A stretch of DNA of 25,182 nt, from IMG/VR virus record IMGVR_UViG_3300031954_001062, positions 1 to 25,182 of that record. One strand, given 5' to 3'. Both the position numbers and the translations under genes were made by a program. The DNA comes from a virus (taxonomy: Duplodnaviria > Caudoviricetes). This document shows positions 118-17,346 of the stretch, in pieces; within the stretch, counting starts at the first letter, position 1; the number at the start of each line of letters is the position of its first letter. The notes beneath the pieces are model-generated. The model made no database searches and was not told the origin of the DNA. It was given only the letters and a program-made list of their open reading frames with translations.

Positions 118-1425
118 TCACCACCTGGCGAGGCGACCGTCTTTCAGATAGGCCTGGCCGTGTCCGAGGGTCATCGAGCCGAGCCACGCGGCTTTGTCCG
201 TGCGATTGAAGTCCACGTCCGCGGTTTTCGGCCGGCCGGCAACCGTGCGAGTTCCCGTTCGTCCGGTGCCGGCCGACGACGGCGATCGACGCCCCATGCC
301 TGGCGCCTGACCGCCGCCCAGGAGATTAAACTCGCGTACCAGTTTTTTCACCACGCCCGAGGCCTTGGCGCGCGCCGCGGTGACGATGAAGCGTACCGCG
401 CGATCGTGATTGCCGGCGTTCATCACCGACTTGTAGTTGTCGGCGTAGCCTTTCGCGGTGTTCACCTGGCTGGCGAGCTCCTCGTTGATGGCTTTCCGGA
501 GCCGGTTGCCCACGTTCACGCTGATCTTTTTGCCGGCCAGCTCAGAGCGCAGCAGCTGATTGATGTGCGCCATCATCTGGGTGTTGACGTCGTTGCGAAT
601 GCGCCCGTAGAACTCACGGGTGCGCTCGGTCTGTATCTCCTGGCGCTCGTTCTCGAGCTTGTCGCGTTCGCCCTTCAGTGGATCCGGCGCTTTGGCGCGC
701 GAGGCGAAGTTGCGCAGATCGAGCAGAAACTGCTTCAGCTCGCCAAAGTATTTGCCGATGTCTTCGAAGCGTTCGCCGGCGATCGCGGATTCGAGCGCGT
801 TGACGGTGGCCAGCACGCCGGTGCGATCGAGCGCCTTGTACATGGGCATGGCGAGCGCGCGATCGTGCGCCGCGAGATCGAGCGCTTCGAGCTTCTCGAG
901 TGCCGGCCCGACCAGCGCTTTGAAGCCGTCCGGATATTCTTTCGCCCAGGTTTCCACTAGCACCGGATCGCCTTGCTGGAAACCTTGCTCCATCATGCGG
1001 CTGGCTTCGACTTCTTCGGCCATCTCGGCGATGGCTTCCGGACCGCCATGGGTCTCGAGGAGCTCCGCGGCCGAGCGCAATTGCTGCAGGCCTCCGAGCT
1101 TGCCGAGCTGCGCCTGCTTGAACAGTGCGTCCGAGATTTGCCGCTCGAGTTGCGGATAGCGTTTCGCGAAGTCTGGATTGGCTTCGCTCAGCTCTCGGAT
1201 GGCTCTTCGGATTTGGGTGGGAAGAGCCCTGGCGGTTCGTTCGTCGCCTGGTCTTCGCTCACCTTCTCCTTCTTCGCCTTCGGAGCGCGCTTCACCGCTC
1301 TCCGAACCTTCCCCTTGGCCTTCGCCTTCGGTTTCTTCGCCACCTTCGCCACCTCCCAACTCTTCTTCTGCGGTGCCTGATCCACCGCCGTCATCTCCGA
1401 GCAGACCGAGTTCTTCGCCATCCAT
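118..1425 (-). CDS. Probable capsid scaffolding/assembly protein (435 aa)
   Basis: SD AGGAGG before ATG; acidic Gly/Glu-rich N-terminus, helical middle and basic C-terminal tail; directly downstream of the portal. Function inferred from synteny and composition. Confidence 0.55.
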   Translation of the reverse strand: MDGEELGLLGDDGGGSGTAEEELGGGEGGEETEGEGQGEGSESGEARSEGEEGEGERRPGDERTARALPTQIRRAIRELSEANPDFAKRYPQLERQISDALFKQAQLGKLGGLQQLRSAAELLETHGGPEAIAEMAEEVEASRMMEQGFQQGDPVLVETWAKEYPDGFKALVGPALEKLEALDLAAHDRALAMPMYKALDRTGVLATVNALESAIAGERFEDIGKYFGELKQFLLDLRNFASRAKAPDPLKGERDKLENERQEIQTERTREFYGRIRNDVNTQMMAHINQLLRSELAGKKISVNVGNRLRKAINEELASQVNTAKGYADNYKSVMNAGNHDRAVRFIVTAARAKASGVVKKLVREFNLLGGGQAPGMGRRSPSSAGTGRTGTRTVAGRPKTADVDFNRTDKAAWLGSMTLGHGQAYLKDGRLARW

Positions 1426-1457: not shown

Positions 1458-3947
1458 CTACTGCACCGGCGGTGCGCCGTTGGGCTTGGCCGGCGGCGCC
1501 GCAGCTCCTGGTGCTGCTGGCGGCGCGCCAGGCAGCATTGGTGGCGGCTCCGCGACGTCGCCGGGACCGAGGGTGATGCCGGCCTCTTTGGCCAGCTGGA
1601 TCTGGCCGGCCGGCGGCAGATCCTTGAAGTTCAGCGATTGCGACACCGGCTTCTGCGGTGTGGGCTGCGCTTGCGCTTGCTGCGCGGCGAGCGCGGCTTT
1701 GTGTTCCTGGTAATGCAGCTTCACATTCGCGAAGCCGTCTTTGTTCTGCTCCGCGGCTTTGATTCCCGCCGGCGTGTTGGCCCAGGTCTTGATCTCGGCC
1801 ATCTCATTGGCGTGGTCATCGAACTCTTCGTCGATCGGGATCGAGCTTACGAGCGGCGGAATCTTTGCCGCGGCCTCGGCGAGCTTCTGCTGCGCGAGGA
1901 GGATCTGTTCCGGCGGCGTGCCGGGCGGCGGCTGCAACTGGCTCATGCCCTGTTGCGCTTCTTGGATCTTCGGATTCGGCAGCGGTGCCGCCTCGAGCAG
2001 CAGCATGGTTTCGCCTTGCTGCTTGGCGGCCGCGGGAGCTCCAGGAATAATCAGTTCGGGCAGGCCGGTCTTGTCTTTGGCGATCGCCAGATTCCGCGGG
2101 ATGGCCAAGATCGCTTGCAGCACCGGATTGGTGGCCGCCGCGGTCATCAACTGCGTCCACACCGAGCGTTGCGCCACCCAACTCTCGGGGAAATTTTCGT
2201 CTGTGTCCGGATAGCAGCGGATGTTGCCCTTCAGATCTTCCGGATTGACGTTCAGCTTTTCTTTGACGCCGCCGGCGGCCGGCACTTCTCCGCTCATCGG
2301 CGAATTGCGGAACTTCGCAGCGCACTGCACCGCCTGGCGAATGATCTTGGCATAGCTGGCTTTGATATTGCGCCAGGTCAGGCCCACGCGGCCGAGCGCC
2401 TGGTCGCGTTGGATCTGCATGCCGCCCATGGTGTCCGGTTGGCCTTCTTGGCCTCCGAACAATGCCGGGAAGGCGCCGCACAGAAACTGCGAGAACTCTC
2501 CGAATAAGCTCTGGATATACAAGAGCAGGCCTTCGGCCAACTGGATCTGCGGCTCGACGAAGATATTGCCGGCGAGATCTTTGTCCGGCCGGCGTTTCAT
2601 TTTCACGTACTGATTCGGTTTGCTGTTCAGCTCCGAGAGCGCTTGCGCATCGATCGCTTCACTGTCCACCCACTTGATGGGGATCAGGTGCATGAAGCTC
2701 TCGTGCACCAGGTCCATGCAATCGTTCAGCTTTTCCTGTAGCGGGATCAGCGGCGATCCGAGTGCCGGGCGGTGCATGCCGTCGCCTGGCCGCGAATGCG
2801 TGAGCGTCAGGTGATCGTCCATTAGCTCGCGGCGCGCTTCGACGATGCAGTGCCCGACGATGCCGACGTAGCAGCCTTTCGGAAACGTGTCGTACAGCCA
2901 CTGGCGCTTCGGCTCATCCTCGATCTCGCGATAGAACGCCGGGCGGAACCAGCACAGCTGCTCGGTGCTCAAATAGGTCATCGCGTCGTTGGTCATGTTC
3001 GACGGACGCATGCCCATCATGATGGAGGTGCGCGCCAGGCGCGCGTATTCCATCTCCGCGGTGAGCGTTTGCATGGCTTTCAGCTCATCCGCTTTGCGCG
3101 GATACTTCGTCTTCATGCGCGTGAGATCGCGTTCGCGGCTGATGATTGCGAAGTCGCAGGCCTCGATGGAGTTCGCCTGCATGGAAAGTTTGCTCTCGAG
3201 CGACCCAAGCATCTCGATGACTTCCTGGCCGCGCGGTTTTCCGCGTGGAAAACTTTCCGTTTCTTCGCCGGCTTTTTCTCCCACCTGCGGCAGGTAGGCG
3301 AGCTCGTCGGAGATTTCCGATTGCGTTTCGTAGCCGAAGCGCTGCCCATCGATGACGTAGTGCGTGTATGCGAGGCAGCGGCCGTCGGTCCACAGGAAGC
3401 GGCACAGTTCTTCCTGCTGCACGATCATGTCGTTCTGCCGCTCGATCAGCTTGCGCGCGTTGTCGGAAGATTCCGACGCCGTGACGTCAGAGGGATTCGT
3501 CGGATCGTCAGGCTCAAATCGTACGGATGGTGTGCCGGCCGTCAGCGAAGCGACGATGGTATCGCCGAACGCCAAGTAGATATTGGTCTCTTGATTGTGA
3601 TCATCGTAAGACTGGCCGCCGACCAAGATAAGCTGCGGCAAGACCCACGCGCCGTTTTTTCCGGGCAGCAGATACTGATTGCCGCGCCAGAAGTAGCGCG
3701 CCTTCCACGCGTCACGAACTTCCATGCGATACGACGTGAGATCCCGCTGCGACGCTTTGTTCGCGAGCGTTTTGAGGATGCCCTCTTTGTCTTCGCGGCT
3801 GAAGCCGCTATCGTCTTCCTCATCGAGATCGACGCGATCCTCTTCGGTGACCGCATCAACTTCGCAAAGCTCGCCCGGTTCGAATTCCTCCTGTTCTTCC
3901 TCGTCGTCTTCCTCGCGCTCATCGCGATCGAGCGGTTCGTCAGCCAT
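1458..3947 (-). CDS. Probable phage portal protein (829 aa)
   Basis: Largest gene downstream of TerL; acidic N-terminus, helical core and Gln/Pro/Ala-rich C-terminal extension, as in long podovirus-type portals. Confidence 0.7.
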   Translation of the reverse strand: MADEPLDRDEREEDDEEEQEEFEPGELCEVDAVTEEDRVDLDEEDDSGFSREDKEGILKTLANKASQRDLTSYRMEVRDAWKARYFWRGNQYLLPGKNGAWVLPQLILVGGQSYDDHNQETNIYLAFGDTIVASLTAGTPSVRFEPDDPTNPSDVTASESSDNARKLIERQNDMIVQQEELCRFLWTDGRCLAYTHYVIDGQRFGYETQSEISDELAYLPQVGEKAGEETESFPRGKPRGQEVIEMLGSLESKLSMQANSIEACDFAIISRERDLTRMKTKYPRKADELKAMQTLTAEMEYARLARTSIMMGMRPSNMTNDAMTYLSTEQLCWFRPAFYREIEDEPKRQWLYDTFPKGCYVGIVGHCIVEARRELMDDHLTLTHSRPGDGMHRPALGSPLIPLQEKLNDCMDLVHESFMHLIPIKWVDSEAIDAQALSELNSKPNQYVKMKRRPDKDLAGNIFVEPQIQLAEGLLLYIQSLFGEFSQFLCGAFPALFGGQEGQPDTMGGMQIQRDQALGRVGLTWRNIKASYAKIIRQAVQCAAKFRNSPMSGEVPAAGGVKEKLNVNPEDLKGNIRCYPDTDENFPESWVAQRSVWTQLMTAAATNPVLQAILAIPRNLAIAKDKTGLPELIIPGAPAAAKQQGETMLLLEAAPLPNPKIQEAQQGMSQLQPPPGTPPEQILLAQQKLAEAAAKIPPLVSSIPIDEEFDDHANEMAEIKTWANTPAGIKAAEQNKDGFANVKLHYQEHKAALAAQQAQAQPTPQKPVSQSLNFKDLPPAGQIQLAKEAGITLGPGDVAEPPPMLPGAPPAAPGAAAPPAKPNGAPPVQ

Positions 3948-6901: not shown

Positions 6902-8398
6902 TCAACGCCGGCGCCGCCGATCGATGGTGAAGATCGCGTCCGAGTGCTGCGCTTTGGCCTGCAGCTCGAGGTAGCGGATGTACTTCTGGCTGTTCGAGGA
7001 GATTTTTTGAATCTCCCGCTGGTAGCGGACCTCGGCGGGAATTTCTTCGGCGTTGGCATAGCTCATCAGACCGTAGCGGAACGATTCGCAGACGTCGAGA
7101 TAAAGTTCGTTGCCTTCTTTCGCGGCGTCTTCGATGTTCTTCTCATCGCGCATTAACTTCGGGATGGAGTCGATCACATCCGGACAGTTGTCGAGTACCG
7201 CGACACCGTCAGTGTCCAGGAGGGTGTAGCAGAGGCGCCAGCCGTCCACACGACGGTTGTTGGCCCGCTCCGGACGAGGTAGCTGCTGTTCGACGAACAC
7301 ATCACCCATCTTGTCGGCGATGCTGTGGAACTGATCGATCTTGCTGAATCGGTCAGGGGAAAGATATATATAGCTGACATGATCCGGCTTTTCTCCGGTG
7401 TGATTCGCCCCGCAGATCTTTTCCGCCACGAGCTGTTCGTTCATTTGCCGCAGTACAAGCTGGCGATAGCAGAGGATCACCGTGCGTCGAGCTTCGCGAT
7501 CGAGTTCCGTCCGGAGTCGTACGCGGGTCCACCACAGCACCACCGTCGCGTGTTCAAAGCCCCAGTCAATCGACATCCACCGCGGCTGCCAATCCTCGAA
7601 GCAAACCTGCTCGAAGCGGACTACGTGGCGCGCGGGATCCCAGTTCTGAAAGAATTGCCCGGCGAGAATATCCCACGAGCCGGGGATCCAGGCCTGCCGC
7701 AGGATGGGATCGACGATGGACTCGAGCGTCGCGATGTAGTTCTTGTCATTGCGATAGACGAAATTGTCCGCGTAGGTCGAGTGCACCGCCTGATAGTCGC
7801 TTGGATCGTAATTGAGAGCCATCTCGCCGACTGGCTTTTTCGTGATCCACAGTGCTTTGACCCACCCGCTGCCTTTGCCGTTCGGGTTGGTGCCGCCAGC
7901 CATGCGCGGCCGCACCGCGTACTCGCGGTTTTCAAACCAATAGGTTTTAATCGGGCAGCGGTTCGACCCTTTGAGGAAGTCCCACTGGCGATATGTGAAC
8001 TGTGTGAGTTCTTCCCAACCGATGAACACGAACTCCGCGCCCTGGTACTGCAAGAGATCGGCATCGTTCTTGATGTGGCCGAAAAAGAGTTTCGAGCCGT
8101 TGTGGAACGTGACGATGTGGCGGCTGGCGTTGTAGCGCCAATAGAAGTGCCGCGGGACCGTCTTCGTGAAGAGATCCTCGATCCCGCCTTTCTCCATCGA
8201 TGTAAGCGTCCGCCGTACGAGTAGGCAGTTCGCGCCAGGGATCAGCAAACACTGCCCGATCGCTTCCCACAGCAAGCTCGTCGACTTGCCGCCGCCGCGG
8301 CCGCCTTCAAACAGCGGATACTTCGAGTCGCTTTCGTGGAACTCGCGCTGCTTCGGTTGCGGCGTGTAGTAGCGCGAGATGTCACTGAATTGGGACAT
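6902..8398 (-). CDS. terL: Phage terminase large subunit (498 aa)
   Basis: Adenine-binding PQPKQ, Walker A GGRGGGKS, Walker B FIGWEE, coupling motif GTNP, RNase H-like nuclease motif SIDWG. Confidence 0.95.
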   Translation of the reverse strand: MSQFSDISRYYTPQPKQREFHESDSKYPLFEGGRGGGKSTSLLWEAIGQCLLIPGANCLLVRRTLTSMEKGGIEDLFTKTVPRHFYWRYNASRHIVTFHNGSKLFFGHIKNDADLLQYQGAEFVFIGWEELTQFTYRQWDFLKGSNRCPIKTYWFENREYAVRPRMAGGTNPNGKGSGWVKALWITKKPVGEMALNYDPSDYQAVHSTYADNFVYRNDKNYIATLESIVDPILRQAWIPGSWDILAGQFFQNWDPARHVVRFEQVCFEDWQPRWMSIDWGFEHATVVLWWTRVRLRTELDREARRTVILCYRQLVLRQMNEQLVAEKICGANHTGEKPDHVSYIYLSPDRFSKIDQFHSIADKMGDVFVEQQLPRPERANNRRVDGWRLCYTLLDTDGVAVLDNCPDVIDSIPKLMRDEKNIEDAAKEGNELYLDVCESFRYGLMSYANAEEIPAEVRYQREIQKISSNSQKYIRYLELQAKAQHSDAIFTIDRRRRR

Positions 8399-15408: not shown

Positions 15409-17202
15409 TTAAAGCCGGCGTGCCTGGGCGCGATAGCGTTGCATCGAGCTCTTGCCGATCCCTAGGCCGAATTCCGCTTGGAACCGCTCCATCATTTCCA
15501 TGCACGACATGTTGGCGTCGCGCTCGAAGAGTTTCTTCACTAGCACGACGCGATCGTCCTTCTGTGCGGCGCGATCTTCGTTTAATTGATTGGGCCGTTC
15601 TTCTTCCCATTTACCGCAGATCCCTGGCTCTTTGTGTAACGCGAAGTCGTGCTGCTCATCGATCGCTGGCCGGCCGCGCAATTGAAACGGACCGACCGGC
15701 TCGAAGTTGGCCGGCTTGAGATTCTGTACGTGTAAAATATTTTCGTGCTGCTCCATCTGGAAGACGCCGTGCGCGGTGCCCACGAGTGCGCCGAGGTCTG
15801 CGGATCCGCGCATCATGTTTTCGAGCGTCATCTCCTGCGCGCCGCGTAGGTTCTTTGGCGAGTGATGCGCGAAGACCACTAGTTTGGCGCCGGCGCCGAG
15901 TAGATTGAAGATGTCCGTGGCCAGGCCTTTCTGTACGTCCGCGGCACTGTTCTCGTCGCCTTCCAGGAAGCGGATGGCGGTATCGAGGAACACTGGACAA
16001 TTCTTGCAGCTCTCGAGCATGCGCGGATCCTCGAGCTTGACCATCGGACCTTTGGAAAGCGTGCGCACCAGTAAGCGGCCTGCGAGCGCGTAGTCGTAGA
16101 GTCCTAACAGAAGCAAACGATGCTTCAGCACTTCGATGGTCGCTTCCGGAATGAGGTAGACGACGTGCTCGAAGCGCTCCACCACATCGAAGATGCCCCA
16201 CAATTTTTCGCCCGGTCCCTCGAGAAGTTTCTTGGCCGTCGACAACATCACAAACGTTTTGCCGTGCCCGGCCAGGCCGGCGATCGCGTTGGCCATATTG
16301 TTCTGATAGAAGCGATCGATCGCAAAGGTCAGCGGCTTGGTGGTGTCCCACTCTGCGCGCGTGTGATAGATCTCGCGCGCCAGCAATTGATTCCAATCGA
16401 TGGCCTCTTTGTCGACGTACTCGAGGAACGCCTCGCGGCTGAATGGCCACTCGCTGACGTCTTTGATGCCTTCCGGTAACCGGCACATGCGCACACTCTT
16501 GCCGGTTTTCTTTACTCCCGAAGCGATGGTGTCGCCGTGTGGCAGGCCGGCTTTGTCGTTGTCCGGAATGATCACTACGTGCTTGCCGCGCAGCATCTCG
16601 TTGAACTCTTCGCGCCACTTGCCGGCGCCCATGGGATTGGTGGTGGCCACCAGGCTGAACTTGTCGCGCATGGTGAGCACATCTTTTTCGCCCTCGACGA
16701 CATACACCGTTTCGGCTTTACTCACCGCAGGAAGATTGAACAGCACCAGGCGCACACCCTGGAGATCCCACTCCCAGTCGCCGTTTGTGCCAGGCCGGCG
16801 CTGCCGGAAATCTTTCGGCTCGTAGCGCACCGACTCGAATAACTTTTTGCCGCGTTCGTCTTCGTAGCTGTAGGTGGCTACGATTTTCTTCGCCGGCATC
16901 TCGATCGGCGGTGGCGGCGGCGGCATCTTGTGCGGCTTGGCGTGCCCGTTCGGTCCGTGCGCCGGCTCATCGAAGAACAGTTCGCGCTCCTCGAGCGCGA
17001 GTGCACGGCAGAGCTCCGCGAGCGTACAACCGGCGTGACATTTCAAGAGCACGCGATCGTGCGTGGCTCGAGCACTGAAACTTTTATTGCGATCTCCGTG
17101 GGCGTGGGCGTTGTGATTCGGACACGAGCTAGTGAACTGGTCGGAACCTTTCCACTTCACGCGCTGACATCGATCGGCAATGACTGCCAGTAGACCTTGC
17201 AA
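15409..17202 (-). CDS. Bifunctional primase-helicase (Zn-binding + TOPRIM + RecA-like/AAA_25 helicase, 597 aa)
   Basis: CPxH...LLKCHAGC Zn domain; TOPRIM VVEGEKD and IIPDND; Walker A AGLAGHGKT, Walker B VFLDT, HHxxK and MRGS motifs; SD AAGGAGG then TTG. Confidence 0.9.
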   Translation of the reverse strand: MQGLLAVIADRCQRVKWKGSDQFTSSCPNHNAHAHGDRNKSFSARATHDRVLLKCHAGCTLAELCRALALEERELFFDEPAHGPNGHAKPHKMPPPPPPIEMPAKKIVATYSYEDERGKKLFESVRYEPKDFRQRRPGTNGDWEWDLQGVRLVLFNLPAVSKAETVYVVEGEKDVLTMRDKFSLVATTNPMGAGKWREEFNEMLRGKHVVIIPDNDKAGLPHGDTIASGVKKTGKSVRMCRLPEGIKDVSEWPFSREAFLEYVDKEAIDWNQLLAREIYHTRAEWDTTKPLTFAIDRFYQNNMANAIAGLAGHGKTFVMLSTAKKLLEGPGEKLWGIFDVVERFEHVVYLIPEATIEVLKHRLLLLGLYDYALAGRLLVRTLSKGPMVKLEDPRMLESCKNCPVFLDTAIRFLEGDENSAADVQKGLATDIFNLLGAGAKLVVFAHHSPKNLRGAQEMTLENMMRGSADLGALVGTAHGVFQMEQHENILHVQNLKPANFEPVGPFQLRGRPAIDEQHDFALHKEPGICGKWEEERPNQLNEDRAAQKDDRVVLVKKLFERDANMSCMEMMERFQAEFGLGIGKSSMQRYRAQARRL

Positions 17203-17346
17203 TGCCCCTCCTTACAAGGGAGCGAGGAGCGATGTGTAAGGCACCGCTCCCCACAAAACCTGGTGTCTTGAGTCACCAGGCGCCAGCTTGCCGAAGGCTC
17301 GGCAGGCCGAACTCTATGTCACCGGCCGTTCATGCGCCAGTGATAT
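17203..17346 (-). promoter_or_regulatory. Multi-hairpin leader of the primase-helicase with a predicted SD-sequestering pseudoknot
   Basis: Four consecutive stem-loops; loop CCTTACA (17235-17241) is complementary to TGTAAGG (17210-17216), which overlaps the SD. Confidence 0.6.

Follow-up and report, generated by a model that had tools for sequence, protein, structure and literature searches.

How is a phage primase-helicase gene translated when its start codon is UUG and its Shine-Dalgarno (SD) sequence overlaps a stretch that is perfectly complementary to the loop of a hairpin just upstream? The question arises from a 25,182-nucleotide stretch of DNA (here called the window), part of the genome of an uncultured soil phage; over the 4.9 kb compared, it is 99.96% identical to an IMG/VR record of 43.7 kb. 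The likely genes of the window, by our choice of open reading frames (ORFs), are all on the minus strand, as is the leader in question. Contigs of four other soil sequencing runs (DNA) cover this leader with 0 differing letters, and it is therefore not an assembly error.

The primase-helicase of 597 amino acids has an N-terminal zinc-binding region followed by Toprim and AAA_25 helicase domains (matches to Pfam Toprim_2 and AAA_25 and to a PHROG primase/helicase family), and a CHC2 zinc finger was matched in its homologue at locus L203. An earlier note on this DNA had placed the start of the gene at the UUG codon. This assignment is borne out, as UUG is the first start codon after the in-frame stop and the homologues P0002, P0056, P0058, and P0070 begin at the same residue as the UUG-initiated protein. 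Because the named homologues come from Candidatus Acidiferrum and Acidoferrales, we infer an acidobacterial host for the phage.

Two further observations concern the surrounding sequence. A sigma70-like promoter site lies at 21143-21115 (minus strand), upstream of a 62-amino-acid ORF and of the run of genes from exonuclease to primase, and could give rise to a read-through transcript across the leader. CCTGAT occurs four times at 1376-1455; three copies at a spacing of 8 to 9 bases stand just before the start of a 435-amino-acid gene (118-1425, minus strand), and the fourth lies inside a GCGGTG/CACCGC hairpin in the first codons of that gene.

Architecture of the primase-helicase leader

The earlier note had described an array of hairpins in which one loop, CCUUACA, pairs perfectly with UGUAAGG, overlapping the SD of the UUG start. 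All of the hairpins it named, the loop, its complement, the SD, and a second CGCUCCC are present on the minus strand where it had placed them, and the complementarity is perfect. The features are as follows (all minus strand).

17343-17336 with 17326-17319: inverted repeat UCACUGGC/GCCGGUGA (sequence), outside the conserved core
17316-17311: candidate −10 hexamer TAGAGT, 7 nt before GCCG
17304-17299 with 17294-17289: accessory 5' hairpin UGCCGA/UCGGCA (sequence)
17280-17274 with 17265-17259: accessory 5' hairpin CCUGGUG/CACCAGG (sequence and fold)
17258-17255: UUUU after the CCUGGUG/CACCAGG hairpin (sequence)
17222-17254: hairpin 1, predicted 13-bp stem (8-bp family core plus distal extension) and 7-nt loop (minimum free energy [MFE] fold)
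17254-17242 with 17234-17222: stem strands of hairpin 1, 13 bp in the MFE fold
17241-17235: loop 1, CCUUACA, putative anti-SD kissing loop (sequence)
17224-17218: second CGCUCCC, in the distal stem of hairpin 1 and the 5' strand of hairpin 2
17221-17217 with 17209-17205: hairpin 2, UCCCU/AGGGG, −4.6 kcal/mol, its 3' strand being part of the SD
17216-17210: loop 2, UGUAAGG, putative pairing partner of loop 1; includes the 5' half of the SD (sequence)
17214-17207: SD UAAGGAGG (sequence)
17202-17200: UUG start codon, 7 nt behind loop 2
15409-17202: primase-helicase gene, 597 amino acids, UUG start
6902-8398: terminase gene (ORF)

The 161-nt leader region folds at −74.9 kcal/mol (z = −4.16), and none of 200 shuffles was as stable. 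A stem of at least 8 bp with a 7-nt loop and the full complement of that loop close behind occurs once in the window and occurred once in total across 60 Markov-resampled windows. Loop 2 is exactly the whole loop of the second hairpin and the exact complement of loop 1, and the two-hairpin fold has a predicted energy of −27.0 kcal/mol, to which hairpin 2 contributes −4.6. The main stem, proposed to have 11 bp, is present as described and extends to 13 bp in the MFE fold. The predicted loop-SD pairing stands, but the architecture is one of two hairpins with complementary loops rather than an H-type pseudoknot alone; the alternative pairing offered by the second CGCUCCC can be set aside, as its predicted energy (−12.2 kcal/mol) is about 10 kcal/mol worse than that of the main stem (−22.4 kcal/mol). 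A covariance model of the element (see below) detected no second copy in the window: the next matches were partial, with E values of 0.006 and worse, and the one at 1370-1388 lacks a complement on the same strand.

The three hairpins upstream of hairpin 1 are present, but they lie outside the conserved core. The UCACUGGC/GCCGGUGA repeat directly follows the upstream stop codon and covers the candidate −35 element and the spacer. The hexamer TAGAGT has a counterpart, TAGACT, at the same spacing before GCCG in the related leaders L122 and L201, and it may mark a promoter, whose −35 element is weak and which is absent from the list of consensus sites returned by our scan. The UGCCGA/UCGGCA hairpin, which begins with GCCG as in L122 and L201, would then be the 5' end of the leader transcript. 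Where the window has CCUGGUG/CACCAGG, L122 and L201 also have a hairpin, lacking the U run; the run is not kept in L203 either. An intrinsic terminator at 17280-17255 was rejected, as it is absent from the scan list and its U run is not conserved. Also rejected were a frameshift signal, because the primase gene is not entered by any reading frame with a slippery site, and a hepatitis delta virus (HDV)-like ribozyme, because the strand order has no P3/L3 element. At L201, a type II hammerhead ribozyme (945-1004, plus strand; Rfam RF02276, 42 bits) lies just upstream of the primase leader, at the position where the window has its first inverted repeat.

A family of covarying leaders

Loci with the closest homologues of the N-terminal domain (L122, L201/L202, and L203) have the same leader layout in other letters: the loop pairs are CCUCAC/GUGAGG in L122 and L203 and CCCAU/AUGGG in L201, and hairpin 2 is poor in L203. 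A covariance model run on 200 of the 229 primase-homologue loci (L321 to L349 were left out) found the motif only in the four closest, three of which were in its training set; most such primases thus do without the module. The zinc-finger and Toprim N terminus (16350-17202 of the window, minus strand) is joined to differing C-terminal domains in L122, L201/L202, and L203, so that the leader travels with the N-terminal module. At L374, the C-terminal domain of the L202 protein stands alone behind the same motif.

For a wider view, we scanned IMG/VR with three patterns that fixed stem and SD letters only and never required the loops to pair. The loops were complementary throughout in 9 of 16 loci, in 11 of 40 (two of the 11 being seeds), and in at least 94 of 124 (a scan covering 46 of the 64 IMG/VR parts, with loci not de-duplicated). 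The distribution over the 124 loci was bimodal: 94 had all five free loop positions paired, one had four, three had three, and 26 had two or fewer. By arithmetic, a full match is expected at about 1 locus in 500, and the remaining loci scatter at chance level. With the covariation of the closest homologues, these counts indicate that the complementarity first noted in a single leader is conserved, the opposite of the outcome that would have spoken against the earlier note. De-duplication left 84 instances; L388, a palindromic self-match, was dropped from all counts and L201 was added, giving an alignment of 84 rows.

In this alignment, stem 1 is paired at 95.8%, and five of its eight pairs show compensatory changes. 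For the third pair of hairpin 2, the patterns left the 5' letter open, and the pair is kept in 77 of the 84 members with 33 compensatory changes. (The corresponding figure for the loop helix, 98%, is a product of selection and is not evidence.) The covariation score was 0.526, against 0.153 for shuffled and at most 0.137 for slid alignments. Since oppositions in stem 1 comprise 35 G-U and only two A-C, an RNA on this strand is indicated. Loop pairing is not part of the covariance model, yet the loops are complementary in all three new matches that it alone found, and L114, which was found without any demand on the stem, still has GGUG/CACC.

The loops themselves vary freely, with 43 distinct sequences among 83 members; their sole fixed letters are the CC facing the GG of the SD, and this CC was demanded by the patterns. 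GGUG-CC and CAYC are nearly constant while all else varies. GGUG-CC was likewise largely demanded by the patterns, yet it appears unasked in L114 and the primase leaders, and it varies in L553 and L554. The search patterns themselves partly fixed the range of gaps and the CU and GGAG letters. Between the 4-bp core and loop 2, gaps of 13 to 14 nt are the most frequent (37 of 83 members). The linker between the extended hairpin 1 and hairpin 2 has a median of 1 nt (83 members), and the start codon most often lies 7 to 8 nt behind loop 2 (46 of the 75 retained members with an ORF; 6 to 10 nt in most). About 80 distinct phage leaders thus keep, by covariation, the two stems, the loop complementarity, and a fixed place 7 to 8 nt before the start codon.

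The exact loop-plus-SD pattern of the window, by comparison, was met at 119 loci, about the chance level, and only 2 of its 133 matches, in the window's own genome and at L114, have a stem of at least 7 bp. A scan of GTDB genomes with a strict, narrow stem pattern gave full Watson-Crick loop matches in none of seven hits, a result that does not imply absence from prophages, and BLAST searches of GenBank phages with the window leader and the L421 motif, which are short and variable and so hard for BLAST, returned nothing meaningful. Rfam 15, its riboswitch and C4 families included, gave no match to the window leader at the gathering threshold and three chance matches below threshold at E values up to 10. 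On 12 loci at gathering, it gave only the L201 hammerhead, elsewhere in that locus, and on 20 member loci at E values up to 0.5 it gave tRNAs only. The int-alpA motif (RF02996) matched neither the window leader (E up to 10) nor the 20 member loci (E up to 0.5), and the main text of PMC5737381 does not mention it. The suggestion that the RNA is uncharacterized therefore holds for Rfam, and a search of titles and abstract openings found no description of the motif. In a table of PMC10690425, candidate RNAs without names precede Toprim/AAA_25 and endonuclease VII genes (DNAVirus_3468, 4129, 4810, 8579, and 7989, all five from aquatic samples); judged by that table of downstream domains, our motif may be among these anonymous candidates. 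On sequence comparison, then, the leader element is real, conserved, and uncatalogued, and it comes from uncultured phages: a large, strongly covarying family of cis-regulatory RNAs absent from Rfam.

The module often heads its own transcript, to judge from the enrichment of sigma70-type sites within 150 nt upstream (24 of 83 members, against 4.4 expected). These 24 consensus sites end 23 to 108 nt upstream of the module core and are usually followed by one or two hairpins, a pattern that the upstream hairpins of the window fit. A transcription start inside hairpin 1, which TAGAGT or TAGACT just upstream of many members might have suggested, was rejected because these letters pair as the distal stem and the consensus promoters lie further up. 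No antisense (plus-strand) consensus promoter was found near the window leader in a scan for sigma70 types. Two members have pairs of tRNA genes directly upstream of the motif-led ORFs (L493, 370-537; L524, 120-274).

The earlier note had taken the element for part of a replication-gene leader. It does covary and does lie over the primase SD, but it is not primase specific, as most members precede nuclease genes. The 75 downstream ORFs comprise 42 homing-type nucleases (matching endonuclease VII, GIY-YIG, HNH, NUMOD3, T5orf172, and Vsr-like families), 10 replication proteins, and 23 unassigned ORFs, some of them cut by the locus end. Nine of the 10 replication ORFs match primase, helicase, or initiator families and one matches the C-terminal part of the L202 primase; their products include Toprim primase-helicases, a D5-type helicase, and initiators. 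All 42 nuclease ORFs start with AUG, compared with 7 of 15 replication or initiator-like ORFs, a set whose members are not independent and four of which we assigned by presumed resemblance. The other eight start with UUG, GUG, or ACG (in L381 and L446 by position and homology).

Several individual ORFs deserve mention. Those behind the motif at L381 (1496-897, minus strand), L446 (1495-899, minus strand), and L530 are 40 to 57% identical and match no family; their N termini may be initiator-like. The first two have an apparent ACG start 8 nt after loop 2, and L530 has UUG. At L444, a two-codon mini-ORF, AUG-CCG-UGA (1556-1564, plus strand), sits at the usual start distance and overlaps the GUG of an O-like initiator, which suggests translational coupling. 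A Mom-like DNA modification gene (phrog_1384) lies behind the motif at L435 (1539-2315, plus strand); its frame has no usual start at the expected distance, and a nearby AUG opens only eight codons.

Each of five replication-gene records checked has one strong copy of the module, located at the replication gene, which makes it a likely point of control over phage DNA replication. In three nuclease-rich records, there are three copies each, with differing loops. The module connects two gene classes whose output phages have to limit: mobile nucleases on the one hand, replication proteins on the other.

Possible modes of action

On balance, we favor a reading in which the two loops form a ligand-free lock in cis that would bury the SD and probably damp translation. 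Hairpin 1 would fold first. Hairpin 2 alone would cover only half of the SD and would leak. Unzipping of the distal 3 to 5 bp of hairpin 1 would free a linker and allow loop 1 to pair with loop 2 over 7 bp, giving a kissing pseudoknot or, if hairpin 2 opens, an H-type pseudoknot, with the whole SD paired. The equilibrium between these folds would hold primase-helicase output at a low and constant level with no need of a ligand, and the weak UUG start would lower it still further. Across the family, the module would serve as a mobile expression cassette for genes that are risky in excess, namely homing-type nucleases and replication proteins.

Geometry and energy bear on this cis lock in several ways. 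In a crude helix model, stems of 8 bp and 5 bp need a linker of 3 to 5 nt, and the window offers 5 nt when stem 1 is held at the modal 8 bp; both whole stems would need 5 to 7 nt, and the window linker is then 0 nt. Unzipping stem 1 to 8 bp would cost 11 kcal/mol (from −27.0 to −16.0), about what the loop helix returns, so that the locked state may be in the minority. The narrow peak of the core-to-loop 2 gap at 13 to 14 nt points to a distance rule in cis, whereas the median linker of only 1 nt, which sets the extended hairpin 1 against hairpin 2 in most members, would suit pairing in trans as well. The near invariance of GGUG-CC is not fully explained by base pairing alone, and this counts against the cis lock.

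The loops may instead pair between two mRNAs, with loop 1 on one molecule and loop 2 on the other, and repression would then tighten with the number of transcripts. Such a dose sensor would exert negative feedback on replication and require no separate antisense RNA; we consider it possible but unlikely. Pairing of this kind needs no melting and leaves both stems intact, which matters because the crude helix model does not allow the loops of the window to kiss in cis while both stems are intact. Loop codes differ between the copies of one genome (in all three genomes with three copies each), although drift could explain this too and L421 and L422, which lie on the same contig, have identical codes. 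In 17 of 83 members, where 6.3 would be expected, the hairpin that precedes hairpin 1 has a 6-nt palindrome in its loop (carriers include L358, L420, L421, L428, L434, L464, and L482, at 10 to 60 nt upstream of hairpin 1), but none was found in the clade of the window. Head-to-tail multimers through complementary, nonpalindromic loops are described for phi29 pRNA and bicoid mRNA (PMC7357161). Against pairing in trans stand the narrow gap of 13 to 14 nt, which points to a constraint in cis, and the far higher local concentration of a tethered loop. Carried further, and with the same small likelihood, leaders of the same phage would kiss head to tail, each code with its own kind only, and would shut down primase-helicase translation as transcripts and genomes accumulate. 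Such a self-counting switch would amount to copy number control by mRNA oligomers, with neither an antisense gene nor a repressor protein, and would have been reused by homing nucleases as a portable limiter.

A true regulated switch, in which the module is bound by a protein of host or phage origin, or with lower likelihood by a small ligand, that stabilizes one fold, strikes us as rather doubtful. The near constancy of GGUG-CC and CAYC amid general variation and the near balance of the two folds are what such a binding site would lead one to expect, but L553 and L554 have a different core, the kissing letters take many forms (43 loops), and we saw no unpaired conserved pocket beyond the SD letters. 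The downstream genes are unrelated and hence provide no shared autoregulatory product, and no Rfam riboswitch matches.

Activation is a further reading that we think improbable: loop pairing would open hairpin 2, leaving the start codon and the 3' half of the SD accessible, as in the IncI and IncB rep leaders. The H-type fold does exclude hairpin 2, the window has a replication gene with a weak start codon, as does ColIb-P9 (PMC4705826), and loop 2 contains a stop codon in the window, L122, and L203, though not in L201. What makes activation less likely is that the pairing covers the SD itself, including its first GG; pairing with the anti-SD would drop from −12.4 to −5.2 kcal/mol. Hairpin 2 is, moreover, too weak to need an opener, no conserved SD-led leader peptide is evident and the sigma70-type scan found no antisense promoter, and most members precede nucleases.

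A DNA-level inverted repeat (an operator, an origin, or the end of a mobile element) or a chance fold is nearly excluded. CCTTACA/TGTAAGG does form an inverted repeat in DNA and adjoins a replication gene, but the two complementary arms covary freely in sequence, they stand 8 to 26 nt apart, only one strand tolerates G-U (35 to 2), and the element keeps a constant position relative to the SD and start codon.

At about 50 nt and with dozens of natural, mutually exclusive loop codes, the module could provide a ready-made collection of orthogonal translation locks.

Comparison with known systems

In the preQ1-I, SAM-II, and SAM-V riboswitches, a small pseudoknot has a last helix that includes SD letters, and in this the module resembles them. 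It differs in its C-rich rather than A-rich linker, its second hairpin, its nonmetabolic genes, and its want of a conserved ligand pocket. With 43 loops among 83 members, there are no conserved loop nucleotides to contact a ligand, and the 75 downstream ORFs, with their 42 nucleases and 10 replication proteins, are not genes for ligand synthesis or import. The riboswitch analogy of the earlier note is therefore weak, there being no Rfam match either, and a metabolite riboswitch is unlikely.

The loops of ColE1 RNA I and RNA II form a fully paired kissing complex. TAR-TAR* also has fully paired loops, with 0-nt junctions and an angle of about 120 degrees (PMC6795135). The module shares with both its loops of 6 to 7 nt, complementary over their full length with no spare junction nucleotides, but each of those complexes joins two separate RNAs, whereas the hairpins of the module are adjacent in one leader and one of them carries the SD.

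The IncI-alpha, IncB, and IncL/M leaders are closer in layout. As described in PMC4705826, the repZ leader of ColIb-P9 combines a replication gene with a weak start, a hairpin that masks the SD, and an upstream loop whose pairing partner adjoins the SD. The window, with its UUG start and a hairpin 2 predicted to lie over half of the SD, shares the weak start, the masked gene, and the upstream loop partner. In the IncI rep leaders, however, the pairing is long range, upstream of the SD, and activating; it needs a leader peptide and competes with the antisense Inc RNA. In the module, the pairing is local, spans 7 bp, and overlaps the SD (17216-17210 against 17214-17207) rather than leaving it free. 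No leader peptide or antisense promoter is evident, nor is an SD-led start evident for a frame ending at the stop codon in loop 2.

Closest in likely function are the ribosome-binding-site (RBS)-masking structures that repress the T-even homing endonucleases I-TevI, I-TevII, I-TevIII, and segB and Aeh1 mobE (PMC2988022). There, as here by prediction and covariation, a local RNA structure lies over the SD of phage nuclease genes, and most members of our family likewise precede GIY-YIG, HNH, or endonuclease VII genes (homing-type nucleases in 42 of 75 members, although the window itself has a primase-helicase). The T-even structure is a single hairpin, bypassed by a late promoter placed inside it (PMC2988022). 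The module has two hairpins with complementary loops, serves replication genes too, and has promoter-like sites 23 to 108 nt upstream; none of the 24 consensus sigma70-type sites would remove the 5' strand of a hairpin in the way of a late promoter.

The module lacks defining features of the T-even hairpins, of the IncI rep leaders, and of the named riboswitches. As modeled here, it would be a new form of RBS-masking translational control, one that probably works like the T-even RBS hairpins and is laid out like an IncI rep leader.
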